Counted from the first letter of the stretch, positions 996 to 22,895 are shown. The stretch is DNA of 22,896 nucleotides from a bacterium (GCA_041497675.1 JBGQGY010000051.1:1-22896); one strand, 5' to 3'. A program made the numbers and translations. The notes: generated from the sequence alone by a model not told the origin.

Positions 996-1343
996 GTGGC
1001 CGTGATCACAGCCAGAATCAAGGTGCACGACGTGCACGACAGGCGAACGCCGGAGAGCCGGACAAGAGGACGCGCAGGGATCACGCCCCTGCGCTGCGTC
1101 TTTCCCGGCTGTGCGCGTCAGTTGGAGTTCGCTCCGGTCGAAGGCGTAGCCTTGAGCGTGGGGCTCGGCGGCGTGATGCGGCGCAGTATCTGCCCGGACC
1201 ACCCCCCGGTCGGCGCGTGCTCACGGTGCGGCATCATGGCGGGCCCACAGTACATGGTGAAGGTACTCCCGAACGGGCGCTGCCCGGAGTGCGCTGGGAC
1301 TGCACGAGCGGTCAGTCGTCGACGGCGGGCGTTGGGGACTTGA
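996..1343 (+). CDS. Small Cys/His-rich putative double zinc-finger protein
   Basis: GTG start with GAGGTG RBS. Eight regularly paired ligands C-x4-C-x26-C-x2-H-x5-C-x2-C-x17-C-x2-C. The 3' end overlaps the convergent regulator by 32 nt. Confidence 0.6.
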   Translation: MAVITARIKVHDVHDRRTPESRTRGRAGITPLRCVFPGCARQLEFAPVEGVALSVGLGGVMRRSICPDHPPVGACSRCGIMAGPQYMVKVLPNGRCPECAGTARAVSRRRRALGT

Positions 1344-2619
1344 GATCGGCGACGAGGGAGCGCAACTCCTCCGAAGCGGATGCTGATTCCTTCGTCATCC
1401 CCAGCCGGTCAAACCCCGCCACCGCGTCTCGCAGCAGCGTGACGGCCCGCCTTCGCTGTTTCTGGTCGCGGAGGATTCGGGCCATCGTGACCTGGGCGAC
1501 CGCTCTACGCGCCTGATCGCCGGATGTCCTCGCATCCTTGATCGCCTGATGGGCAACTGAGGCTGCCTCGTCGGGCCGACCCATTGTTAGCAGCACCGCT
1601 GCAATCTCGTCACGCGTCGCGCTGCAACCCCGCAGGTCGGCTTGGCGTTCCCTGATGCGAAGCGCCTTCTGAAGAACCGCGAGCGCTTCGGCGTAGAGAC
1701 CCTGCTCGCGCCGGACACGTCCAAGGTTCGTCAGCACCCGCCCTATCTCCGCAAGATCTTCAGCCTGCTCGAAGACCTCGTATGCGCGGCTGAGAAGATC
1801 CACGGCCTGGTCCAGACGCCCCGCGGCCCATTCGATCAGGCCCAGACCCGTCAGCGCGCGACCGTGAAGCGTCGGCATTTCCAACCGCTCGGCGAAGTAC
1901 TGCGCCCGCCGGTAGGCGCGCTGCGCGCGATTGACCTCGTTCATTCGCAGCCGCGCCGCGCCGAGTGAAAGGAGCGCCCAGACACCTTCTTCGGTGCGGA
2001 TGGACTTGGCACGCCGCATGAGATCGATCGCATGCTCAAGCGTCACGACCGCCCTCTGGAATGCCCCCCGCCGCTCCTCCACGATGCCCTTGACACACAA
2101 CGCCAGGCCAAGCGCACTCTCGAGTTGGTTTCGGCGGGCTCGCCCGGCGGCGTCCTGGGCCAGTCTCGCCGCTTCATCCAGCCTGTTCGCCGCCATGGCG
2201 GCGCGAGCGCGAGTGAGTGTTGTGCGAACCCGCAACTCAGCCGGCATATCCGGCAGCATGGCCTCGGCCGTTTCGGAAAACCGGACGGCTTCGGCGCCCT
2301 GGCTGATGGGATCCATATCCCAGGCAAGTTGAATGAGATTGAAGGCGGTCTCGAGACGCAGCTCCGCGGTGTCGAACAAGAGCGAGGCCACCGACACGCG
2401 GGCCCGCCGGGACAAGGCGACCGTCGTCTCAACCGACGGATAAGAATTGCCGCTCTCAAGCAGGCTGACAAAACTCTTGCCGAGGTCGGGCGCCGCCAGG
2501 GCTTCTTGGGTCAGGCCGGCCCGCCCGCGCGCCGCTTTCAAACGCGAACCAAACTTGACGAGCCAGTCCGGCCGACTCGAAGATATCGAAGATACCGCTG
2601 CAAGGGAGGGTTTAGCCAT
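1312..2619 (-). CDS. HTH-XRE + TPR transcriptional regulator, RRNPP (NprR/PlcR)-like peptide receptor architecture
   Basis: N-terminal XRE HTH (FGSRLKAARGRAGLTQEALA...KSFVSLLESGNSYPSVET) followed by tandem TPR-like helical repeats (ALLSLGAARLR, ALTGLGLIEW, VLTNLGRVRR...EALAVLQKAL). An in-frame stop 15 nt upstream fixes ATG 2619 as the earliest start. Confidence 0.9.
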   Translation of the reverse strand: MAKPSLAAVSSISSSRPDWLVKFGSRLKAARGRAGLTQEALAAPDLGKSFVSLLESGNSYPSVETTVALSRRARVSVASLLFDTAELRLETAFNLIQLAWDMDPISQGAEAVRFSETAEAMLPDMPAELRVRTTLTRARAAMAANRLDEAARLAQDAAGRARRNQLESALGLALCVKGIVEERRGAFQRAVVTLEHAIDLMRRAKSIRTEEGVWALLSLGAARLRMNEVNRAQRAYRRAQYFAERLEMPTLHGRALTGLGLIEWAAGRLDQAVDLLSRAYEVFEQAEDLAEIGRVLTNLGRVRREQGLYAEALAVLQKALRIRERQADLRGCSATRDEIAAVLLTMGRPDEAASVAHQAIKDARTSGDQARRAVAQVTMARILRDQKQRRRAVTLLRDAVAGFDRLGMTKESASASEELRSLVADLKSPTPAVDD

Positions 2620-2628
2620 AGTGAATAA

Positions 2629-2658
2629 ACTTTAGCATCGCGACTGCGCCCAACGCAA
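2629..2658 (-). promoter_or_regulatory. Putative sigma70 promoter of the regulator, giving a near-leaderless mRNA
   Basis: Minus strand reads TTGCGT-18nt-TAAAGT with an extended -10 TG (TGCTAAAGT), 9 nt before the ATG. No Shine-Dalgarno sequence. Confidence 0.45.
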
Positions 2659-2738
2659 GCCCAACGGAGCCCCCCAAAGGACTTGTCACGGCGCGCAGTT
2701 GGCTACCCTCCCCCACAGCTAGACGTTACCTCTGAAGC

Positions 2739-2873
2739 CTAGCCACCCCCGGGCGCGTCAATATCGGTGGTCTGCCATTGCACCCGGGTGGTCGTGTCCG
2801 TCACGAGCGGTGAAACCAGAATCAACGAGATGGCGGCGATGACCGCCATGGCAAAGCATAGAGCCTTTTTCAT
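2739..2873 (-). CDS. 44-aa secreted propeptide, candidate quorum-sensing pheromone precursor
   Basis: Read manually, not in the ORF track: strong RBS GGAGGAGGAG, then ATG AAA AAG... MKKALCFAMAVIAAISLILVSPLVTDTTTRVQWQTTDIDAPGGG*. Basic n-region, hydrophobic h-region and polar C-terminal tail; co-oriented 119 nt upstream of the HTH-TPR gene. Confidence 0.85.
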   Translation of the reverse strand: MKKALCFAMAVIAAISLILVSPLVTDTTTRVQWQTTDIDAPGGG

Positions 2874-2953
2874 AGAACTCTCCTCCTCCGGCAAAGGCGG
2901 TTTTTGGGGGCTCCATTGTGCTCGGTTCGATGTTTACAATTGGTGATCCTTTA

Positions 2954-2994
2954 TATTGTTGTCACGCAGAACAATACTATTTGGTACAACCAAA
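2954..2994. promoter_or_regulatory. Two adjacent AT-rich palindromes, candidate operator sites upstream of the propeptide gene
   Basis: TATTGTT-N9-AACAATA (2954-2976) and TTTGGT-ACA-ACCAAA (2980-2994), inside the most AT-rich stretch of the window. Confidence 0.5.
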
Positions 2995-3057
2995 CTTTGT
3001 ATACGGGAGAAAGCGTAGAGAAACGGGCGTGGGAAAAAAACAGTATCTATGCGGAGC

Positions 3058-4299
3058 TTACAGGGTTCCTATCGCCAGCAGTGCCGCGGCGGCGTCAAGG
3101 ACGCCGTAGCCCAGATCGAAATCCCAACCGTTGCCCTCAAGATCTCTTGCGGTTCGCTGCAACAGCCCCTTCACTTGCGCCGGTTTGAGCCTGGTCGTCG
3201 ACACCCGCTGCCGGAGGGCGGCCGCCGCGCCCGCGGCAACCGGTGAGGCCGCGGACGTCCCAGTGTCCACGGGATAGACGCCCGATCCCCTGAAGTGACT
3301 GAACCCTGCCAGGTCGGGCTTGCGTCGCGTCAGCCCGCCCGGCCCCTGCGACGAATAGCCGAGCCGGCGGTCGGTCACCGTGACGGCCGCAACGGTCACC
3401 ACATCGGGATGCGAGTTGGCGCCGTGGATGCTGGCTCCCGGCCCGACATCCTTGGTCCCGCATTGTCGTGAAGGGCAGTCGGCCCCGCAGTTGCCCGCGG
3501 CGAAGAACACGTCCGCACCGGCCGCCACGATCGACCCCACGACCTGATTGAATGGATGATGCGGGTTAGCGCTGTAGTTCTCGGGCGACCCGATGGGCGC
3601 ATCTTGCGCCCGGTCGTAGATCCCCCAACTATTGTTGACGACCAGCGGCCCCGCGTCGCGTTCGAGCACCTGCAGTAAATCGGCGTAGGCCGCGATCGCG
3701 TCCGACAGGAGCGCCGTCCAGGTTTCCGCGCGCGACCGGAGGAGAGCATAGTCGAGGATGCGGGCATCGGGGGCGGCGATCCGCACATCGTACGCCACCA
3801 TCGTGCCGTGCGTCGGCGGCGCCGACCCGGGCCGGTAGTCGCGGTTCGGCGACCACCCGCCGGAGACGGGAATTTGCCGGCCATCGATGCCGGTATCGAC
3901 GATCGCGACGCGCACCTCGCGACCTGTCAGACCGGCGGCCCGCAGCGCGGGAACGCCAAGCCGGTCGGCGACATCCGTGTCGCTCCCCACGGCATCGGGG
4001 CCGCAATAGGGCTCGGGGAAGGCGGCAATTTCAGGATCGGCGTACACGCCGACGACGTCGGCCGGTCTATCACGCAGAAGACGCGCGGTCACATCTTCAT
4101 CATCGCATTCGCCGCGGACGCAATACGACGTTGGGCCGGCCGACCGGTAGTCGAATCCCACCGCACCGGGCCGGTCTTTGGGGACTCCCAGACGGCTAGA
4201 GATCCGTACGGGGTGGTAGGTGTCGTCGAACCGAAGACCGGCGACGCGCACGGCTTCGAGCACGGCGCCGCTCCGGATCACGATGATGCGACGTAGCAT
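3058..4299 (-). CDS. Subtilisin-like serine peptidase (S8) with N-terminal prodomain and no signal peptide
   Basis: Catalytic motifs VAIVDTGID, HGTMVA, oxyanion FAAGN and GTSAASP; C-terminal GYG. RBS GGGGAGGG is spaced correctly for ATG 4299 rather than ATG 4305. Confidence 0.93.
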   Translation of the reverse strand: MLRRIIVIRSGAVLEAVRVAGLRFDDTYHPVRISSRLGVPKDRPGAVGFDYRSAGPTSYCVRGECDDEDVTARLLRDRPADVVGVYADPEIAAFPEPYCGPDAVGSDTDVADRLGVPALRAAGLTGREVRVAIVDTGIDGRQIPVSGGWSPNRDYRPGSAPPTHGTMVAYDVRIAAPDARILDYALLRSRAETWTALLSDAIAAYADLLQVLERDAGPLVVNNSWGIYDRAQDAPIGSPENYSANPHHPFNQVVGSIVAAGADVFFAAGNCGADCPSRQCGTKDVGPGASIHGANSHPDVVTVAAVTVTDRRLGYSSQGPGGLTRRKPDLAGFSHFRGSGVYPVDTGTSAASPVAAGAAAALRQRVSTTRLKPAQVKGLLQRTARDLEGNGWDFDLGYGVLDAAAALLAIGTL

Positions 4300-4331
4300 G
4301 CGCATCCCTCCCCGCGCCGAGAATGATGCGG

Positions 4332-4583
4332 TTAGGACATCGGTGCCTGCCGGACGTCCGCAAAGAACTGGACGCCCGGAATGGCTTCGGCCCTCCTGCG
4401 CGCTTCGGGCGTGGCTTCGCCTCGGACCACGTGCCGCCCGCGACCCGGGTCGATCAGCAAGGGCCCGTAGCTATCGTCTAAGCGGACGCCGGTTCCGGCG
4501 AACAGCGTGGCGACGGCCGTCATGTCGAGACGCGCGCCGGGCCGGTCCACCTGGATGATGAAGAGCCGGGGCTGGTCCGCTAC
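4332..4583 (-). CDS. Small protein paralogous to the prodomain of the adjacent S8 protease (possible inhibitor or chaperone); start uncertain
   Basis: GVRLDDSYGPLLI...VVRGE...FFADVRQAP aligns by eye with the protease's GLRFDDTYHPVRI...CVRGE...VYADPEIAA. It fills the gap between DinB and S8. The nearest ATG is 4523; a strong RBS precedes GTA at 4583. Confidence 0.7.
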   Translation of the reverse strand, partial: VADQPRLFIIQVDRPGARLDMTAVATLFAGTGVRLDDSYGPLLIDPGRGRHVVRGEATPEARRRAEAIPGVQFFADVRQAPMS

Positions 4584-13437: not shown

Positions 13438-13532
13438 CCTGCCCCGCGCGCGTGCCTGCAGGAACCAGCGCTCAATAAATGAAGGAAACACGCACACGCG
13501 ACTCAAGATGCACGCCGAAAGGGGATAGCACC

Positions 13533-15116
13533 ATGCGAGTACGTGTTGCGATAGTCTTGCTGCTCGGTCTCGCGTTGATCGCGGGGTTTCGGGCCCCGGC
13601 ATCGGGTGGGCCGGCGCCGGGCGGGGGGATCGTCTTCCCCATTGTCGGCGATCCGACGTTCAACCCATGGCACCCGCGGCATTTTGTGGAGTCGATCTTC
13701 GTCACGCGGGTTCTCTTCAACGGGTTAACCAAGTGGGGAAAAGACTCCAAGTGGGTAGGAGACCTGGCCGAGCGCTGGGAAGTCTCGCCGGACGGGCTGA
13801 CGTGGACCTTCTACCTGCGCAAGGGCGTGAAGTGGCACGACGGACGCGACTTCACCTCTGATGACGTGAAGTTCACCTACGACATCGTGCTCAACCCGCG
13901 GCTGGGCGCAACGGGAAGGGCGAACTTCGGCTCTATGAAGGAAGTCAAAGTCGTAGACGCCAACACCGTGCAGTTCCTCCTCTCCACGCCGCAGGCCAGC
14001 ATCGTGGCGGTCGTGGGCGTCAACGCCGGCATCCTCCCCCGGCACGCGTTTGCCGGCGTCGCCCCGGAAAACTACTGGACGCACGACGCTTTCAACAAAC
14101 GCAACCCGATCGGCACAGGCGCGTACAAGATGAAGGAATACGTGTCGGGGTCTTACGTGACGCTGGAAAAGCATCCCAGCTATTTCGGCGGGGCTCCGTC
14201 GATTGACACGGTCACGTTCAAGGTGCTTCCCGACGTCAACGCGCAGATCGCGCAGTTCCTCGCCGGCGACCTGAACGTCATCTTCATCGACAACCCGACG
14301 CTGGTGAAGGCCGTACAGGGGCGGCCGAATATCAAGGTCGACACGCTGCCGCAGAACAACTTCTACTACATCGCCCCCAACCATCGCAACAAGTTGTTTC
14401 AGGACCGCCGCGTGCGCCAGGCCATCATGTACTCTCTGGATCGCCCGGCGATGATCAAGGGCTTCCTTGAAGGCTTCGCGACTCCCGCCAGCGGCCCGCT
14501 CACGCCGGTGCTCAAGAACTACTTCAATCCCAACGTGAAGACGTACGAGTTTGACCGCGCCAAGGCGCGCCAGTTGCTGGCCGAGGCCGGCTGGCAGCCC
14601 GGATCCGACGGCGTCCTGGTCAAGGACGGGCAGCGGTTCCAATTCACCCTCACGTATCCCACGGTGCAGTACTTCGAACCGCTGGCCGCGCTGATACAGC
14701 AGTACCTGCGTGCCGTGGGTATGGAGACGACCCTCGACGGGGTGGATTTCAACACCTTCATCTCGCAGCGCTACCTCCCGCGGCGGTACGATGCGACGAT
14801 CGTCTGGTGGATCATGCCCGAAGACCCCGACTTCTTCAACTACGCGCACAGCAGCGCCGCGGAGCGCGGATTCAACGTGCCAATGTACAGCAATAAGGAG
14901 GCGGACGCGCTGCTCGAGGCCGGGCGCAAGGCGCAGACCGTCGCCGAGCGGGAGCGTATCTACAAGAAGTTCCAGGAACTCGCCGCGGAAGACCTGCCAT
15001 ATCTGTATCTCTGGTGGCCGAACGAGATCCGCGCCTGGAACACACGGGTCAAGGGCATCCCGCCCATTCACCTGCGGGCCGCGTTCCAGTGGATCAACGA
15101 GTGGAAGCTGGAGTAG
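13533..15116 (+). CDS. ABC transporter substrate-binding protein, family 5 (peptide/nickel)
   Basis: RBS AAAGGGGG + ATG 13533; signal peptide; DLAERWEVSPDGLTWTFYLRKGVKWHDG, PIGTGAYK and DRRVRQAI. Confidence 0.95.
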   Translation: MRVRVAIVLLLGLALIAGFRAPASGGPAPGGGIVFPIVGDPTFNPWHPRHFVESIFVTRVLFNGLTKWGKDSKWVGDLAERWEVSPDGLTWTFYLRKGVKWHDGRDFTSDDVKFTYDIVLNPRLGATGRANFGSMKEVKVVDANTVQFLLSTPQASIVAVVGVNAGILPRHAFAGVAPENYWTHDAFNKRNPIGTGAYKMKEYVSGSYVTLEKHPSYFGGAPSIDTVTFKVLPDVNAQIAQFLAGDLNVIFIDNPTLVKAVQGRPNIKVDTLPQNNFYYIAPNHRNKLFQDRRVRQAIMYSLDRPAMIKGFLEGFATPASGPLTPVLKNYFNPNVKTYEFDRAKARQLLAEAGWQPGSDGVLVKDGQRFQFTLTYPTVQYFEPLAALIQQYLRAVGMETTLDGVDFNTFISQRYLPRRYDATIVWWIMPEDPDFFNYAHSSAAERGFNVPMYSNKEADALLEAGRKAQTVAERERIYKKFQELAAEDLPYLYLWWPNEIRAWNTRVKGIPPIHLRAAFQWINEWKLE

Positions 15117-15127
15117 CCTGCTGAGGG

Positions 15128-15169
15128 TCTGCTTCCGCGGGTCCTAAACGACGGACCTGCGGAAGCAGA
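15128..15169 (+). other. Intercistronic stem-loop after the binding-protein gene
   Basis: TCTGCTTCCGCGGGTCC-TAAACGAC-GGACCTGCGGAAGCAGA: 17-bp stem with one G-U pair and no U-tract. Typical stabiliser or attenuator in ABC operons. Confidence 0.75.
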
Positions 15170-15177
15170 ATGCAGCC

Positions 15178-16125
15178 GTGGGACGCTACCTGCTGGAGCG
15201 CGCCGCCCAGGCGTTGGTCGTACTACTCGTCGTCTCCACGCTGACGTTCGTCATGGTGACGCTGGCCCCCGGGGGGCCGGAGATCATGATGACGATGGAG
15301 TCGACGCCGGATCAGCGCGAGGCGCTTGCGCGCCAGTTGGGTCTGGACCAGCCGCTGCTCGTGCGCTACGTGAAGTGGATGGGCTCCGCCGTGCGCGCGG
15401 ACTTTGGCCGATCTTTCGGCGACCGGCGGAAGGTCAACGAGGTCATTCGGGAGCGGCTGCCCAATACGCTGCTCCTCGCCGGCACGGCGCTGACGCTCTC
15501 GCTCTTGATTGGGATACCGGCCGGAATCATCTCTGCGACCCGGCGCCACTCGAGCGCGGACCACGTCGTCACGTTCGTCTCGTTCATCGGCGTATCCATC
15601 CCCGTCTTCTGGTTTGCCATCCTGCTCATCTTGCTGTTCACGGTGCATCTGCACTGGCTCCCGGCCTCTGGGATGGCCACCCCCGGAACGTCGTTCTTGT
15701 TGGCCGACCGCGTGACGCACCTGGTGCTCCCGGCTGTGGTCCTGGCTACGGCCACCCTGCCGAACCTGGTGCGCTTCATGCGCTCGGCGCTGATCGAGGA
15801 GATCGGGCAGGACTACGTGCGCACCGCGCGCGCCAAAGGGCTGCCGGGTCGGCAGGTGCTGTCGCGTCACGCGATTCGCAACGCGTTGATCCCGGTGGTC
15901 ACGGTGCTGGGCATCTTGATTCCCCGGTCGGTAGGCGGCGCCGTCATCACCGAAACGATCTTTGGCTGGCCCGGCATGGGTCAACTGGCTGTTGGGGCAA
16001 CGATCGGGCGTGACTTCCCGCTGATCATGGGGCTCACGGTCGTCGTCGCCATCGTCGTCATTTTGTGCAACCTGCTGGTCGACCTGGCGTACGGCTGGTT
16101 GGATCCCCGTATTACCTACACCTAA
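15178..16125 (+). CDS. ABC peptide transporter permease (OppB/DppB-like)
   Basis: LGLDQPLLVRY, ERLPNT, EAA-type DYVRTARAKGL and ETIFGWPGMG. Confidence 0.95.
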   Translation: MGRYLLERAAQALVVLLVVSTLTFVMVTLAPGGPEIMMTMESTPDQREALARQLGLDQPLLVRYVKWMGSAVRADFGRSFGDRRKVNEVIRERLPNTLLLAGTALTLSLLIGIPAGIISATRRHSSADHVVTFVSFIGVSIPVFWFAILLILLFTVHLHWLPASGMATPGTSFLLADRVTHLVLPAVVLATATLPNLVRFMRSALIEEIGQDYVRTARAKGLPGRQVLSRHAIRNALIPVVTVLGILIPRSVGGAVITETIFGWPGMGQLAVGATIGRDFPLIMGLTVVVAIVVILCNLLVDLAYGWLDPRITYT

Positions 16126-16155
16126 CAGCATGGGCAACGGCGCAAGGCGCACTCG

Positions 16156-17043
16156 ATGGACATAGCCGCGTCTACAACAGTAGCCCAGGTCCCCGCGCCG
16201 CCCCGAACGTTGTGGACGATCGCGGTCCGCCGGCTGCGGCGCAACGTCCCGGCGTTGATCGGCCTGGGCTATCTCATTGCCGTGCACCTGCTGGCAGTCT
16301 TCGGTCCCTGGCTGCTCCCCTGGGATCCCTTCGCCGCCGACCCGCTCACTCGGCTGGCCGGGAGCACCGCGCTGCACCCGCTGGGCACCGATGAGATCGG
16401 CCGCGACGTGCTGGCGCGGCTGATGCTCGGCGCGCGCGTGTCGCTCAGCGTCGGGCTCGTGGCGATGATCATCTCGGTGTCGCTTGGGGTCACGGTGGGC
16501 GCGCTGGCGGGCTATTTTGGCCGGCGCCCTGAGGCAGTCCTGATGCGTTTCACCGACGCGATGTTGGCCCTGCCCACGTTGTTTGTCATCCTGGCGGCGC
16601 TGGCCGTGTTTGGCGGCGGGCCGGCGACCTCGACCATTGTGATCGGCCTGACGACCTGGATGCCGGTGGCGCGTGTCGTCCGCGGCGAATACCTCCGGTG
16701 GCGCGTGACCGAGTTTGTGGACGCGGCGCGCGTCATCGGATCGAACGACCTGCGCATCATGCTCCGGCACATCCTGCCCCAGGTGGCACCGTCCATCATT
16801 GTGGCCGCCACGTTGAATGTCGCGTTTGCGATCCTGACCGAATCCGCGATCTCGTACCTGGGCCTGGGCATCCGCCCGCCGCTGCCGTCGTGGGGCAACA
16901 TGCTGCAAAACGCGCAAATCTATATCTGGTCGGCCCCGAGCCTGGCCGTCTATCCCGGGGCGATGATCCTGCTGACGGTGCTGGCGTACAACTTCGTGGG
17001 CGACGGACTCCGCGATGCACTCGATCCGCGTTTGAAAATCTGA
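16156..17043 (+). CDS. ABC peptide transporter permease (OppC/DppC-like)
   Basis: HPLGTDEIGRD, EFVDAARVIG, RHILP, PSWGNML and GDGLRDALDP. Confidence 0.95.
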   Translation: MDIAASTTVAQVPAPPRTLWTIAVRRLRRNVPALIGLGYLIAVHLLAVFGPWLLPWDPFAADPLTRLAGSTALHPLGTDEIGRDVLARLMLGARVSLSVGLVAMIISVSLGVTVGALAGYFGRRPEAVLMRFTDAMLALPTLFVILAALAVFGGGPATSTIVIGLTTWMPVARVVRGEYLRWRVTEFVDAARVIGSNDLRIMLRHILPQVAPSIIVAATLNVAFAILTESAISYLGLGIRPPLPSWGNMLQNAQIYIWSAPSLAVYPGAMILLTVLAYNFVGDGLRDALDPRLKI

Positions 17044-17119
17044 TTTACAGAAGGGAACGCCCGTTCATCACGAATTGTTCTGATGACCCCTGGTACGGCC
17101 ACTGAAGGAGGTTCTGCCG

Positions 17120-18889
17120 ATGAGTTCGGTCAGCACGTGGCGCAACACCGCTGATGAGCAGACCCTAATCGACGAGGTCAACCTCGACGAACCCTGGGCG
17201 CTCATTGAAACATACACCGGCCTCGTACGCGAATCCGGGACGAAGCCCGAACGGCGGTCGTTCGACTACCTGAGCAAACGCCTGAAGAAGTGCGGCGTCC
17301 CCCACACCGTGCACACCCCGACGCTGTTCATCAGCGTCCCGCGGAAGGCGCGTCTCGAGGTCGTAGCGCCGGAGCCGAAGACGCTGACGGCCAAGACGCC
17401 GGCGATGTCACTCTCGACCGGCGGCCGGTGGATGCGGGGCGAGGTCGTCTACCTGCAGACCGGGCAGATGGGCGAGATCCGCGGGTTGTTCGAGGGTGTC
17501 GGGGAAATCACACAAGACCTCACCGGGAAGATCGTGCTCACCGAAGGCTACGCGTCCCCCGGCAAGGTGTTTGATTTTATCAAACAGGGCGCCGATGCCG
17601 CGATCTTCATCAGCCCCGGCGAGCGCATCCACGAAGGCATTTGCACGACCATCTGGGGGTCACCCGATCTCGACTCGTGGGAGCGCAAGCCGACCATCCC
17701 GGTGGTGTCGGTCAGTAAGACCGAAGGCACGTGGCTGCGTGATCTGGCCAAGCAGGGAAAGGTCAAGGTCCGCCTGTCGACCAAACTCGACGAGGGATGG
17801 GTGCAGTGCCCGGTCTGCGTCGCGGAGATTCGCGGCGCGCAGGTGCCTGAGGAGTTTGTCCTGCTGCACGGGCACGTGGACGGCTGGCATCAGGGCGTCG
17901 GCGACAACGCGACCGGCGACGGCACCATGCTCGAAGTCGCGCGTATCCTCTGGAAACATCGCGACAAGCTGTCGCGCACCGTGCGCATCGCCTGGTGGCC
18001 CGGTCACTCGACGGGCCGTTACGCGGGATCGGTCTGGTACGCGGACACCTTCGGTCTGGACATCGACGCCAACTGTGTGGCCCATATCAACTGCGACTCG
18101 CCCGGCTGCCGGTGGGCAACGGTCTACGAGGATGTCTTCTGGATGAGCGAGGCCGAGGGTATCGGCAAGGCCGTCATCAAGGATGTCACCGGACAAGAGG
18201 CGAGCGGCGGCCGCCCCCTGCGCGCGGGCGACAAATCGTTCAGCAACATCGGCGTCTCGACGTTCTACATGTTGTCGTCGACGATGCCGAAGCCGCAGCT
18301 CAAGGAGAAAGGCTACTATCCCGTGGGCGGCTGCGGCGCCAACATCGCCTGGCACACTGAAGACGACACCATTGAGATCGCCGATCGTGTCAATCTGTTG
18401 CGAGATATCAAGGTGTATTTGGTCGCAACTTACCGCACCGCGAACGCGGTGTTTCATCCACTGGACTTTACCGCCCTGGCCGACGAGATTCACCGCACGC
18501 TGCAGACCTATCAGAACGCCACCGGGGGCGAGTTCGATCTCGGTGAACCCATCGCCGAGTCGTTGTCGCTGCGCGCCGATCTCGAACGCTGGTACCTCGA
18601 CCGCGCGCACCTGTTGGGCAAGTCGGTGTCCGATCCGGCGGTCCGGGCGGCGAACAAGACGCTGCGGAGACTGTCGCGGATCCTGGTCAAGATCAACTAC
18701 ACGCGCGCGGGCCGTTTCCGGCACGACCGCGCGGTCGACGTCCCACCGCTGCCAGATCTCGCGCCCGCGAAGACCTGGAAGAACTTGCAGAAAGACGGCG
18801 ATGTCTACCACCTCACCCTGAATCATCTCGTCCGCGGGCGCAACCGCGTGACCGCCTCGCTGCGCGACGCTCGGGCGTTGCTGGCCTAA
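17120..18889 (+). CDS. M28-family zinc peptidase/amidohydrolase with PA domain, cytoplasmic
   Basis: RBS AAGGAGG; HGHVDGW, GVGDNATG, HINCDSPG and WHTEDDT; no signal peptide. Confidence 0.85.
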   Translation: MSSVSTWRNTADEQTLIDEVNLDEPWALIETYTGLVRESGTKPERRSFDYLSKRLKKCGVPHTVHTPTLFISVPRKARLEVVAPEPKTLTAKTPAMSLSTGGRWMRGEVVYLQTGQMGEIRGLFEGVGEITQDLTGKIVLTEGYASPGKVFDFIKQGADAAIFISPGERIHEGICTTIWGSPDLDSWERKPTIPVVSVSKTEGTWLRDLAKQGKVKVRLSTKLDEGWVQCPVCVAEIRGAQVPEEFVLLHGHVDGWHQGVGDNATGDGTMLEVARILWKHRDKLSRTVRIAWWPGHSTGRYAGSVWYADTFGLDIDANCVAHINCDSPGCRWATVYEDVFWMSEAEGIGKAVIKDVTGQEASGGRPLRAGDKSFSNIGVSTFYMLSSTMPKPQLKEKGYYPVGGCGANIAWHTEDDTIEIADRVNLLRDIKVYLVATYRTANAVFHPLDFTALADEIHRTLQTYQNATGGEFDLGEPIAESLSLRADLERWYLDRAHLLGKSVSDPAVRAANKTLRRLSRILVKINYTRAGRFRHDRAVDVPPLPDLAPAKTWKNLQKDGDVYHLTLNHLVRGRNRVTASLRDARALLA

Positions 18890-20796: not shown

Positions 20797-22239
20797 TTGT
20801 CCCTCGACCAATACCTGGAGCGCCTTGAGGCGTTCCAGGTCGACCTCAATCGAGAAATGTTCAACCAGGGGGCCGGGCTCGTCTACGACGAAGCCCGGAT
20901 GGCCACGGTGTCGGCCGACATCGAACGGCTGGCGACCGATGCGCTCCAAACCTTCCCCACCACCGCCTTCCCCCGACCGTTGCTCTGGGACACGCTGCTG
21001 AACAGCCGTGCCTCGGACTATACACGGCTGCGCAACGAGATCCATCGTTTGCGCGCGGAGGCCGTCACGGTGACGGTCGACGGCGAGACGGTGAACCTCT
21101 CAAACTGGCGGCTCTTCGTACGCAGACACCTGCGAGAAGGCGAGAAGCGCCGCCGCGCGTTCGATGGTTTGATGGAGGCCGCCGCCGTATTGACCCCGGT
21201 GTTGGAGGAACGGTTTGCGCTGAGCCGCACATTGTACGGTCAGTACGGCATCACGCCGCTGGACGTGTACCTGGAAGACGAAGAGATCTCGCTGCCGCGT
21301 CTCAAAGCGCTGATCACGACGACCGCCCATGCCGCGCGCGCGCCGTTTCGTGAGGCCGCCGACGGGTACGCCCGCGAACTGTTGGGAAAGCCCCTCGAGT
21401 ACTTCGACGACATGTACGTGTTCGCGGGATCGATCTACGAACCGTTCGACAATCACTTCGCCACGATCGATTTCGATAAATCCCTCAACGCCACGTACCG
21501 GCGCCTGGGTTTCGACCTTTCCCGCATCTCGATCGACGGTGAACCCCGGCCTGCCAAGCATGTGTCGCCATCGTGTTGGCCGATCCAGGTGCCCCAAGAC
21601 GTCAGGGTCATGTACCAGCGGACGAGCCCCTCCTATGACTACACGGGATACTGTCACGAGATGGGGCACGCAGTCCACTTCGCGTCGATTGACGCGGCGC
21701 GACCATACCACGAGCGCTATCTCGTCACCGACGGCGTCGCGGAAATCTTCAGTACGCTGTTTGAGACACTGGGGACGGACCCGCGTTTTCTCGCGGAGGA
21801 GATCGGCATGCCGGCGGATATCATCGCCGGGATCAGTGCACGAGAACGTTTTATGGAGTGGTCATTCCTGGTGTTCTACGGCGCCAACTCACTGTTCAAG
21901 GTCTTGTTCTGGGAAGACGGCCTCTCGGTCGCCGCAGGGGATGCGGTCTTCGCCACCCTGTACGCCGACCTCGTCGGTCAGATGATCCCGGGCCGCTACT
22001 GGCAAACGCACCACGTCACCGGCATGTATGACATCTACGCGCCTAGTTATCTGTTGGCCAAGATCAGAATGGAGGAGCTGAAGGTCCGGTTGCGCGCCGA
22101 GTTCGGCGAAGCTTGGTGGCGGAATCTGAAGGCCGGCGCCTATCTAAAAGATACGCTGATGGGACCCGGACGGGCCATCGATCCCGCGCCGTTCTCCCGG
22201 TTGGACGAAGGGCCGTACCTGCGCAGCGTTGGGCTCTAG
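20797..22239 (+). CDS. Gluzincin metallopeptidase (M3/M32-like)
   Basis: HEMGHAVH zinc motif with downstream third ligand DGVAEIF; PIQVPQDV and YAPSYLLA. Confidence 0.8.
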   Translation: MSLDQYLERLEAFQVDLNREMFNQGAGLVYDEARMATVSADIERLATDALQTFPTTAFPRPLLWDTLLNSRASDYTRLRNEIHRLRAEAVTVTVDGETVNLSNWRLFVRRHLREGEKRRRAFDGLMEAAAVLTPVLEERFALSRTLYGQYGITPLDVYLEDEEISLPRLKALITTTAHAARAPFREAADGYARELLGKPLEYFDDMYVFAGSIYEPFDNHFATIDFDKSLNATYRRLGFDLSRISIDGEPRPAKHVSPSCWPIQVPQDVRVMYQRTSPSYDYTGYCHEMGHAVHFASIDAARPYHERYLVTDGVAEIFSTLFETLGTDPRFLAEEIGMPADIIAGISARERFMEWSFLVFYGANSLFKVLFWEDGLSVAAGDAVFATLYADLVGQMIPGRYWQTHHVTGMYDIYAPSYLLAKIRMEELKVRLRAEFGEAWWRNLKAGAYLKDTLMGPGRAIDPAPFSRLDEGPYLRSVGL

Positions 22240-22895
22240 CGTTGCTCCGGCTGCCGGAGCGTCCGGAGCAGTTCGCCGACGATCACCTGCAACGCCGCCG
22301 CAATCGGCACTGCGAGCAACGCGCCGATGATCCCCATCAGATTGGCGCCCACCATGATCGCGACAAGGGTCAAGAGCGGAGACAGCCCCACCGCCTGCTT
22401 CATCACCCGCGGAACGAGTACGTTCCCTTCCGTCTGCTGAATCACGGTGAAGAAGATGATCACCGCGACGATCCGCCAGGCCGGTCCGATGAACAATGCC
22501 ACGAGCACCGCGGGGATCGCGCCGAGTACGGGCCCGATCATCGGGATCAGTTCGGTCACCCCGGCGACGACACCCAATAGAAACGGATAGGGTAGTCCGA
22601 GGATCCAGGTTCCGAGACCGGCGGCGATGCCGATGACCAGCCCCAGGAAAAGCTGTCCACGCAACCATCCCCCGAACTTGAGCCCGATGTGCTGGAGCAC
22701 ACTCTCGAGCTGCCTGTGACGCGCGCGTGGAAAGAGATCGAGGAACCCCTGCTTGATGGCGGGGCCTTCAAGCAACATGTAAAAGCTCAGGATCAGCACG
22801 GTGATACCGGAGACGACGCCGCCGAAGACACGAAACGCGACGCCGGTCGCCGTCCCCAGATACGAGGTTAGGCGGCCGGCCTCATCAGGAAGTCG
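22236..22895 (-). CDS. AI-2E family transporter (5'-truncated by window edge)
   Basis: WLRGQL, ELIPMIGP, QQTEGNVLVPRVM and GALLAVPIAA; frame is open to the window end. Confidence 0.93.
   Translation of the reverse strand, partial: RLPDEAGRLTSYLGTATGVAFRVFGGVVSGITVLILSFYMLLEGPAIKQGFLDLFPRARHRQLESVLQHIGLKFGGWLRGQLFLGLVIGIAAGLGTWILGLPYPFLLGVVAGVTELIPMIGPVLGAIPAVLVALFIGPAWRIVAVIIFFTVIQQTEGNVLVPRVMKQAVGLSPLLTLVAIMVGANLMGIIGALLAVPIAAALQVIVGELLRTLRQPEQR

Follow-up and report, generated by a model that had tools for sequence, protein, structure and literature searches.

Does a small open reading frame (ORF) that precedes the gene of a helix-turn-helix (HTH) regulator, in a bacterium outside the Bacillota, encode the peptide signal that this regulator perceives? 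The question is raised by a stretch of bacterial DNA of 22,896 nucleotides (GCA_041497675.1 JBGQGY010000051.1:1-22896; hereafter the window, meaning the whole stretch analysed), in which a 44-codon ORF lies upstream of, and co-oriented with, the gene of a 435-residue regulator carrying an XRE-type HTH and tetratricopeptide repeats (TPR). Systems of the RRNPP type, in which such a receptor is paired with a small propeptide gene, are described from Bacillota and their plasmids and phages. A preliminary description of the window had proposed that the two genes form a cognate pheromone/receptor pair of this type, and had taken high GC and leaderless genes as a hint of a host outside typical low-GC Bacillota. 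The small ORF is a real, conserved gene under purifying selection, and it is nearly certain that the cassette is a real functional pair. That the cassette works in an RRNPP-like manner, with the exported and processed tail of the peptide acting as ligand of the cytoplasmic receptor, is suggested by analogy and could equally well prove right or wrong.

The small ORF, together with its strong ribosome-binding site (RBS), turned out to be exact to the base as first described. The ORF listing gives its frame as 2739-2894 on the minus strand, with 51 amino acids counted from a TTG codon, and an internal ATG at 2873-2871 yields the 44-residue product MKKALCFAMAVIAAISLILVSPLVTDTTTRVQWQTTDIDAPGGG, which begins with MKK, continues through 17 hydrophobic residues and a variable linker, and ends in the conserved tail TDIDAPGGG. 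On the minus strand the gene follows that of an S8 peptidase and precedes that of the receptor, 119 nt separating the peptide stop from the receptor start (Table 1), and an RBS of the GGAGG type occupies the homologous position in every related peptide gene listed. Among loci of the closest receptor homologues in related genomes, a same-strand ORF of 42-46 amino acids was found in 11 of 12, the window's own included, each with a GGAGG-type RBS and with its stop 103-137 nt 5' of the receptor start. A profile built from these 11 peptides and searched over 94 genomes of the phylum (E <= 1e-8) identified 19 places in 16 genomes, all 16 belonging to the window's family; six weaker matches lay inside long open frames and were rejected as peptide genes. 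Both tallies take in the unpublished genomes G019 and G010, on neither of which the conclusions depend. The profile misses divergent peptides of the same build, which stand beside distant receptors (38-41% identity) in three other genera, at four of four loci. A locus filter based on RBS, hydrophobic N-terminus and position detected the family peptide in 19 of 45 loci of species-representative genomes and in 35 of 44 metagenome loci, four of the nine misses among the latter having less than 260 nt of upstream DNA. In total, 54 loci with 46 distinct peptides of 42-48 amino acids were obtained.

The ratio pN/pS was 0.07-0.76 in all 14 informative pairs, a fifteenth pair showing two non-synonymous and zero synonymous changes, and every indel between the compared peptide genes was in frame and located in the linker. 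The preliminary description had suggested looking beside receptor homologues for small ORFs, and these are provided by the peptide genes of the 54 loci, which are under purifying selection and tightly linked to the receptor. In the public protein collection the peptide family forms 29 clusters, the named ones of which are called 'hypothetical protein', apart from one stray chaperone label. Pfam and NCBIfam searches with the 44-residue peptide gave no match, and an Atlas feature search was set aside because its best hits were unnamed clusters at 0.83-0.85, with a PapR cluster at rank 10 and 0.80, below the meaningful level. Public data labelled as RNA were likewise not used as evidence, since DNA carry-over is possible in the contigs of three metatranscriptome runs that cover parts of the receptor gene. 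In run X15, whose RNA label is a guess, a 148-nt contig covers the peptide ORF (2739-2883) at a word depth of 194, and another contig covers the intergenic region and the 5' half of the receptor gene at a word depth of 19.5; contigs can show neither level, ends nor strand, uncovered parts carry no information, and these too were left out. The 148-nt contig differs from the window by a net 3 nt, in frame, in the linker.

The distribution of conservation along the peptide is uneven. From the N-terminus, the general build comprises one to three basic residues, about 17 hydrophobic ones, a helix-breaking P, S, T or G, the variable linker and, at the C-terminus, the conserved block. The final twelve positions of the 31 distinct group-1 peptides follow approximately the pattern W/V-Q-V/T-A-D-G/P-D-x-P-G/D/E-G-G, and those of the 15 group-2 peptides, again approximately, x-A-D/G-G-x-P-G-E-N-G-G. 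Over 61 pairs of related but distinct peptides, mean identity was 0.75 in the first 20 residues, 0.56 in the linker and 0.79 in the last nine; tail identity exceeded that of the linker in 56 pairs and fell below it in three, and linker length was unequal in 31. Within the window's subclade, TDIDAPGGG stays constant as receptor identity drops from 96% to 73%, while the linker gains and loses residues. In a Candidatus Geohabitans locus (L021, identical to L072) the peptide ends in APELPGEN-AIQ-APELPGEN, a tandem 8-mer. The conserved tail, the variable linker and the tandem 8-mer together fit a propeptide with a C-terminal mature part, as far as sequence comparison can indicate, and in this respect the earlier proposal that the mature signal is a C-terminal fragment agrees with the pattern. 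Propeptides with a duplicated core are described for RRNPPA systems (PMC11343458), with which the tandem 8-mer may be compared. The peptide gene of L021/L072, with its tandem copy of the presumed mature unit, lies about 106-250 nt 5' of its receptor gene.

The co-oriented regulator downstream was confirmed as an XRE-HTH/TPR protein both by family matches and by modelling. Pfam matches the repeats with TPR_12 (E 2.6e-23) and TPR_MalT (3e-12), and the N-terminus with HTH_31 (E 5.9e-5, 23.7 bits, under the curated cut-off of 27) and HTH_3 (1.4e-3); PF01381 or PF13560 is present in the receptor homologues. The N-terminus of the sequence is not hydrophobic. An AlphaFold2 model built from 52 homologues, with a mean predicted local distance difference test value (pLDDT) of 93 and a predicted template-modelling score (pTM) of 0.82, comprises a five-helix HTH (residues 18-81) and a superhelix of 18 TPR-like helices, or about nine repeats (84-427). 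With 435 residues and its TPR repeats, the protein agrees with the receptor definition of RRNPP_detector, a cytoplasmic protein of 250-500 amino acids bearing a TPR-type domain for peptide binding (PMC10075063). It also has the N-terminal XRE-type HTH of the DNA-binding RRNPP subfamilies (PlcR, NprR, Rgg, PrgX and AimR), and the 44-residue ORF falls within the 10-100 amino acids required of the adjacent gene. PADLOC returned only generic TPR, HTH and control-protein models. As modelled, the architecture of the receptor is that of PlcR, NprR and AimR. A complex prediction of the TPR part (84-435) with the full 44-residue pre-peptide, run without controls, scored 0.09 and 0.02 against a mark of 0.32 and counts neither for nor against binding.

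The favoured reading, which follows the logic of RRNPP systems such as PlcR-PapR, NprR-NprX and AimR-AimP, runs as follows. The pre-peptide would be inserted or exported through the Sec pathway by means of its N-terminal K/R residues and 17-residue hydrophobic segment, which looks like a signal sequence. A peptidase would then free the conserved C-terminal block, which is acidic, rich in Gly and Pro and about 9-11 residues long ((T)TDIDAPGGG in the window), and an importer of the Opp/Dpp (oligopeptide/dipeptide permease) type would take up the fragment. Inside the cell the fragment would bind the concave TPR face and alter receptor binding at the cassette's own promoter region. In a read-through transcript from the peptide promoter, the receptor start codon would be locked in an RNA helix (helix 2, described below), so that the peptide could be induced without raised receptor synthesis.

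Several lines of evidence weigh against this reading, and the first concerns the descent of the receptor. In a Foldseek search of the PDB with the model, the eukaryotic proteins LGN/Pins came first (E about 6e-11), followed by RapJ-PhrC, RapF, a phage Rap and PlcR-PapR-DNA. VIA-align, which is independent of Foldseek, gave among RRNPP receptors Z values of 26.9 for RapI, 24.6 for Rap phi105 with peptide, 24.2 for NprR-NprX, 19.4 for PlcR-PapR and 18.7 for AimR, with 331 aligned residues for RapI, 325 for NprR and 280 for PlcR; the PlcR-PapR alignment spans residues 20-302 of the model, HTH included, and that of AimR likewise begins at residue 20-21. Other TPR proteins reached 30.6 (LGN), 30.2 (Pins), 25.6 (APPBP2), 25.0 (OGT) and 21.8 (MalT domain III). 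A sequence profile search of the PDB was led by designed TPRs and kinesin light chain, with RapF at 4e-10, and RNPP_C (PF18768) had no match in the source genome at E <= 0.01; this model was silent in a Bacillus control as well and therefore discriminates poorly. Since unrelated TPR proteins score equally high, RRNPP homology is not shown, and on these model comparisons common descent with RRNPP receptors is indistinguishable from generic TPR similarity. Of the earlier interpretation, the conserved, selected and tightly linked gene has stood, and the interpretation as a whole is partly supported.

A second group of adverse points concerns the passage of the peptide. Most members are without a canonical AXA cleavage site and have Pro or other unfavourable residues at the expected signal-peptidase position, in many members Pro or a bulky residue where small ones would be needed, and a 17-residue hydrophobic segment is long enough for a membrane anchor, so that it could be a signal anchor. 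The host would add a further barrier. It was assigned to Candidatus Sysuimicrobiota (formerly CSP1-3), which places it outside the Bacillota, in line with the suggestion of the preliminary description. Its named relatives are Candidatus Fervidifonticultor species (family Humicultoraceae), Candidatus Geohabitans, Candidatus Calidihabitans and 'Armatimonadetes bacterium CSP1-3', and many metagenome-assembled genomes carry the NCBI label Armatimonadota. In the source genome (3.97 Mb, completeness 98.6%), Omp85/BamA (E 1e-37) and LpxC (E 2e-81) are each matched once, and judging by these genes the host is probably a diderm with lipopolysaccharide (LPS) and an outer membrane, which means that an intercellular signal would have to cross the outer membrane twice. 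In favour of the reading, import capacity is provided by 113 matches to SBP_bac_5 (oligopeptide/dipeptide-binding), and passages of PMC11962464, an analysis of the phylum, report copy-number gains in peptide/nickel and oligopeptide transport genes. An Opp-like set with SBP_bac_5, OppB-like and OppC-like genes, followed by an M28 peptidase, is present in the window itself (Table 1). Opp-type genes flank 2 of 11 annotated loci; with about 100 such genes per genome this may be due to chance, and the adjacency was rejected as evidence.

The distribution of the two genes supplies the remaining adverse points. A quick maximum-likelihood tree was built from 90 receptor rows, 89 of them different; in it the window falls in a clade of 57 rows with support 96, of which 41 have the peptide, 11 are without it and five have too little upstream DNA. 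Nine of the 11 peptide-less rows are paralogue groups nested among peptide-linked receptors, and the 32 rows of the sister clade, which represent other families of this phylum, are all without such a peptide. For sister-clade receptors, 16 loci searched on both strands over 500 nt on each side yielded no signal-like ORF under a filter (RBS at least 4 of 5, hydrophobic N-terminus) that could miss other kinds; its two matches were unrelated 72-residue two-helix proteins and were discarded. Beside the cassette, the neighbourhood comparisons given below showed no conserved gene for a processing enzyme or exporter and no conserved target gene.

Within the window's clade, peptide-less paralogues co-occur with a complete cassette in six genomes, and the peptide-less paralogue clade (L013-L018, L053, L055, L059, L061, L062, L067 and L070) possibly consists of orphan receptors. 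Four of the five readable peptide-less loci are divergent from TrpR/YerC-like and HisZ-like genes, named from their translations without a family search, and the fifth lies beside an unrelated gene. At L144, the closest metagenome relative of L021/L072, the peptide gene has seemingly been deleted. In genome G016 the orthologous receptor (L005, contig C39) is peptide-less, and an intact peptide gene with the tail AGGDPPDGG stands elsewhere (L028, contig C29) with no receptor, next to an ORF whose translation reads as an IS110-like transposase, again without a family search; the arrangement looks like a rearranged cassette. The source genome has a second cassette, on contig C28, with the tail SGPGEGPDGG as against TDIDAPGGG, and G043 also has two cassettes. 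Tail types track receptor subclades in the tree, which fits co-diversification and, equally, plain vertical descent. The order of peptide gene before receptor gene, which the preliminary description had noted as differing from the usual one, is constant in every locus that bears the peptide.

Set beside known systems, the cassette shares with PlcR-PapR and NprR-NprX of the Bacillus cereus group a cytoplasmic receptor in which an XRE-type HTH is followed by a TPR superhelix, a neighbouring gene of 40-50 codons whose product begins with basic and hydrophobic residues, continues through a variable linker and ends in a short conserved block, and the occurrence of several cassettes with different tails per genome. 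It differs from them in that its host is a member of Candidatus Sysuimicrobiota with BamA and LpxC instead of a monoderm of the Bacillota, the peptide gene comes before the receptor gene, only generic TPR models and not RNPP_C match the receptor, the tail is acidic, rich in Gly and Pro and ends in GG, the cleavage site is non-canonical, and covarying RNA/DNA elements couple the two genes. As regards Rap-Phr of Bacillus, its phages and plasmids, RapI and Rap phi105 are among the top RRNPP structural matches, and a C-terminal mature part of the propeptide would be a further common trait. Rap, however, has no HTH and acts on proteins, and its gene precedes that of the peptide and often overlaps it, whereas the present receptor carries an HTH and its gene follows that of the peptide at a distance of 103-147 nt. 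LGN/Pins is the best structural match of all (Z 30.6 over 316 residues, with a root-mean-square deviation of 4.0; Foldseek E 6e-11), and according to the titles of the structure entries these proteins bind extended peptides in the inner groove, but they lack an HTH and any gene-neighbour logic, and their biology is unrelated. That the best match lies there implies that the fold match to RRNPP receptors is non-specific.

A second explanation takes the peptide to be a small envelope protein, membrane-anchored or secreted, for which the HTH-TPR protein is simply the local regulator of transcription; the peptide would then act in the membrane or periplasm without ever meeting the receptor, whose TPR domain would sense something else. 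A segment of 17 hydrophobic residues, mostly with no AXA site after it, would fit an anchor with its N-terminus inside and its C-terminus outside, the host is probably diderm, peptide-less receptor clades exist, and TPR folds of this kind bind many types of ligand. On the other hand, across the 54 loci the peptide gene travels with this receptor alone, conservation is highest in a short, acidic C-terminal tail and not in a folded domain, the tandem 8-mer of one member is hard to explain if the protein stays anchored, and cassettes with distinct tails occur, two of them in one genome. We consider this explanation, the main rival of the favoured reading, unlikely, with an appreciable chance left to it.

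The neighbourhood of the cassette bears on a further explanation. No flanking gene was found to be conserved by BLASTP against 15 other neighbourhoods or by Pfam in 11, from which it follows that the two genes behave as a free-standing module. The product of the S8 peptidase gene immediately upstream has no evident N-terminal signal sequence. Since homologues are missing from the flanks of the cassette in all 15 of those neighbourhoods, the idea that it is a dedicated processing enzyme was dismissed. A 63-residue ORF located 5' of the S8 gene has no more than a short stretch of 13 residues (GxRxDDxYxP) in common with the N-terminus of the peptidase (E 0.008); neither this ORF nor the peptidase is conserved beside the cassette elsewhere. 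At L042 and L044, which are group-2 loci from two genera, the peptide gene has a divergent gamma-glutamyltranspeptidase gene on its upstream side, and the receptor gene is followed by one for an aldehyde dehydrogenase; in a third genus an M28 peptidase lies downstream of the receptor, no more than two or three genes away; peptidases thus recur near the cassette, no single one being conserved. It could also be supposed that the small gene encodes the precursor of a ribosomally synthesized and post-translationally modified peptide (RiPP) or bacteriocin, the HTH-TPR protein being the regulator of the pathway. The size of the gene and its conserved Gly/Pro-rich core resemble those of a precursor, and NCBIfam returned a weak TPR-region match to the RiPP-associated HaaT (E 3.5e-8, 32 bits, far below the cut-off of 1125). 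No modification enzyme, dedicated exporter or immunity gene, however, is conserved in the 11 annotated neighbourhoods, and the N-terminus resembles a Sec signal or anchor, unlike a RiPP leader, which makes this supposition highly improbable.

The two genes are also linked by cis elements. About 60 nt 5' of the peptide ATG lies a 20-mer, AGGATCACCAATTGTAAACA in the window and AGGAwTAGCAATTGTAGAC as family consensus, which at up to four mismatches has two matches in the 3.97-Mb genome, each before a peptide gene, and no further copies. Another element is helix 2, in which the segment 15-40 nt past the peptide stop, holding the SD-like GGGGGAGGG (GGAGGAGGG; SD, Shine-Dalgarno), pairs with the receptor start codon and the first 20-30 nt of that gene. 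The duplex amounts to -40.3 kcal/mol in the window, to between -36 and -48 in 13 of 13 group-1 loci and to between -12 and -18 in four of four group-2 loci, and the helix is part of the RNAalifold consensus and, for the window's transcript, of both the minimum-free-energy fold and the centroid fold. Cognate arms averaged -41.4 kcal/mol against -34.0 for non-cognate ones, the cognate arm taking first rank in 5 of the 13 loci and one of the first two ranks in 10. On a plain MAFFT alignment, 79.6% of cells paired as compared with 74.4 +/- 1.6 after shuffling (reached by 1 of 500 shuffles), with a covariation score of 0.229 as compared with 0.164 (reached by 3 of 500); of the 17 pairs, seven show changes in both partners, and controls slid along the alignment had 44-56% of their cells paired.

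The loop of helix 2 contains conserved TTGCC, 17-18 nt, and TGnTAAAnT ending 9-10 nt before the receptor ATG (TTATTCACTATG), which is preceded by TTATTCACT and has no SD sequence. Taken with helix 2, this promoter-like element leads us to infer that the receptor is translated from its own leaderless or near-leaderless mRNA and that its start is hidden in read-through RNA; translational coupling or an RNase III site are alternatives for the helix. Within 2400-3200, a strict sigma-70 scan found no promoter-like site, Rfam gave no match at E <= 1, and the single terminator-like site, where shuffles average 0.9, falls within the receptor gene. The stretch 2900-3057, between the S8 gene and the peptide promoter region, is AT-rich (the bin 2001-3000 has 60.6% GC as against 67-68% in its neighbours) and holds the palindromes TTTGGT-TGT-ACCAAA and TATTGTT-N9-AACAATA (I14), which are not conserved in the aligned relatives.

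Because helix 2 ties the segment after the peptide stop to the receptor start, covaries and is part of the minimum-free-energy fold, the small ORF might be regarded as a cis-acting leader whose translation controls receptor synthesis through the helix, its product being functionless. This is highly improbable, given that the amino-acid sequence is under purifying selection with a conserved tail, that all four group-2 loci keep the peptide without helix 2, and that the peptide gene of L028 persists with no receptor next to it. Moreover, the core of the helix starts about 20 nt past the stop, which, for a ribosome footprint of the usual size, is mostly outside the reach of a terminating ribosome.

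A further element, inverted repeat 1, brackets the peptide ORF. One arm, of the GGAGCCCCC type, lies in the 5' untranslated region (UTR), and the other, of the GGGGGCTCC type, some 45 nt 5' of the receptor ATG. The window's own arms are 21 nt long and 86% complementary; arms with at least 8 contiguous pairs occupy the homologous place in 14 of 17 loci, with the compensatory variants CGTGAGAGCCCTC/GAGGGCTCTCACG and GTGGCGGGTCCCC/GGGGACCCGCCAT, and in 11 of 17 loci at most 8 of 200 shuffles were as good. In group 1 this helix showed no cognate advantage (-24.9 vs -24.4 kcal/mol), and it lies outside the minimum-free-energy fold of the window's transcript. Duplex folding in long windows, of the 5' UTR against the whole intergenic region, was non-discriminating in DNA so rich in GC, with z mostly above -2. 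The repeat may act as RNA, forming a 5'-3' helix, or provide two operator sites. It resembles the fold-back element of hok mRNA, and as in hok/sok type I toxin mRNAs a small hydrophobic ORF stands between complementary 5' and 3' segments. A hok- or ldr-style membrane toxin, whose mRNA is kept inert by 5'-3' fold-back and whose regulator is incidental or controlling, is nevertheless the least probable of the explanations considered, since a single hydrophobic helix in a small protein and a covarying bracket round the ORF are outweighed by a strong exposed SD sequence and a conserved polar, acidic Gly/Pro tail that are atypical of such toxins, by an obligatory linkage to one receptor family that it leaves unexplained, by the absence of any Rfam match in the interval searched, and by a fold-back outside the predicted minimum-free-energy structure. 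No antisense RNA gene or promoter, which such a system would have, was seen, though no search was aimed at one.

Table 1. Position, strand and basis of the cassette genes, their cis elements and neighbouring features in the window.
Feature	Position	Strand	Basis
44-aa pre-peptide gene	2739-2873	minus	ORF and sequence, homologues, pN/pS, profile matches
Shine-Dalgarno sequence GGAGGAGGAG, 6 nt 5' of peptide ATG	2880-2889	minus	read from sequence
435-aa cytoplasmic regulator (HTH-TPR receptor)	1312-2619	minus	Pfam, homologues, AlphaFold2 model
20-mer AGGATCACCAATTGTAAACA, candidate promoter/operator of peptide gene	2931-2950	minus	upstream-region alignment
Inverted repeat 1, 5' arm (CAATGGAGCCCCC...), in peptide 5' UTR	2902-2922	minus	inverted-repeat pair I1
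Inverted repeat 1, 3' arm (GGGGGGCTCCGTTG...), abutting the -35-like hexamer of the receptor gene	2658-2678	minus	alignment, I1
Helix 2, 5' arm, just 3' of peptide stop	2699-2736	minus	duplex, fold, covariation, inverted repeats I3 and I7
Helix 2, 3' arm (ATGGCTAAACCCTCCC...), receptor start codon and first 32 nt	2585-2619	minus	duplex, fold, covariation
Receptor promoter-like element TTGCGT, 18 nt, (TGC)TAAAGT, 9 nt to ATG	2629-2658	minus	conserved columns TTGC, TGGTAA
S8 peptidase gene	3058-4305	minus	Pfam Peptidase_S8, E 2.4e-24
63-aa ORF 5' of S8 gene	4335-4523	minus	
Opp-like set	13479-17043		
SBP_bac_5, OppB-like and OppC-like genes, then M28 peptidase	within 13479-18889		
AI-2E family transporter gene, partial	22236-22895	minus	PF01594, E 2e-51

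The partial AI-2E family transporter gene at the end of the window showed no link to the cassette.

The published range of RRNPP systems gives these observations their context. According to its own passages, the large survey of PMC10075063 covered only Firmicutes and viruses, and the RRNPP passages of PMC9765709 and PMC12700828 mention no other phyla. In openly accessible main texts, the literature joining RRNPP with Armatimonadota or Actinomycetota yielded no report outside Bacillota, and the main texts of two papers on CSP1-3/Sysuimicrobiota (PMC11962464 and PMC11604079) do not contain the word 'quorum'. The broadest proposition is that of RRNPP-type signalling through a cytoplasmic receptor in an LPS-containing diderm of the Sysuimicrobiota, which may have originated independently from HTH-TPR regulators in one family, with orthogonal tails, orphan receptors and an RNA wiring of its own (a receptor-blocking helix and a 5'-3' bracket round the peptide ORF); we put it forward tentatively, as somewhat doubtful. 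Given so short a cassette and a predicted ligand no more complex than a plain 8-11-mer, the proposal is testable with synthetic peptide and recombinant protein and without cultivation, and the covarying helix, in which the receptor start codon would be concealed, is a regulatory feature that can be tested in its own right. If the proposition is true, intracellular peptide pheromone sensing would not be a Gram-positive speciality, its known range would widen to a phylum with outer-membrane genes, and the question would be raised of how the peptides cross the outer membrane. For this widespread, uncultured phylum of soil, sediment and hot springs, the cassette would be a first handle on regulation.

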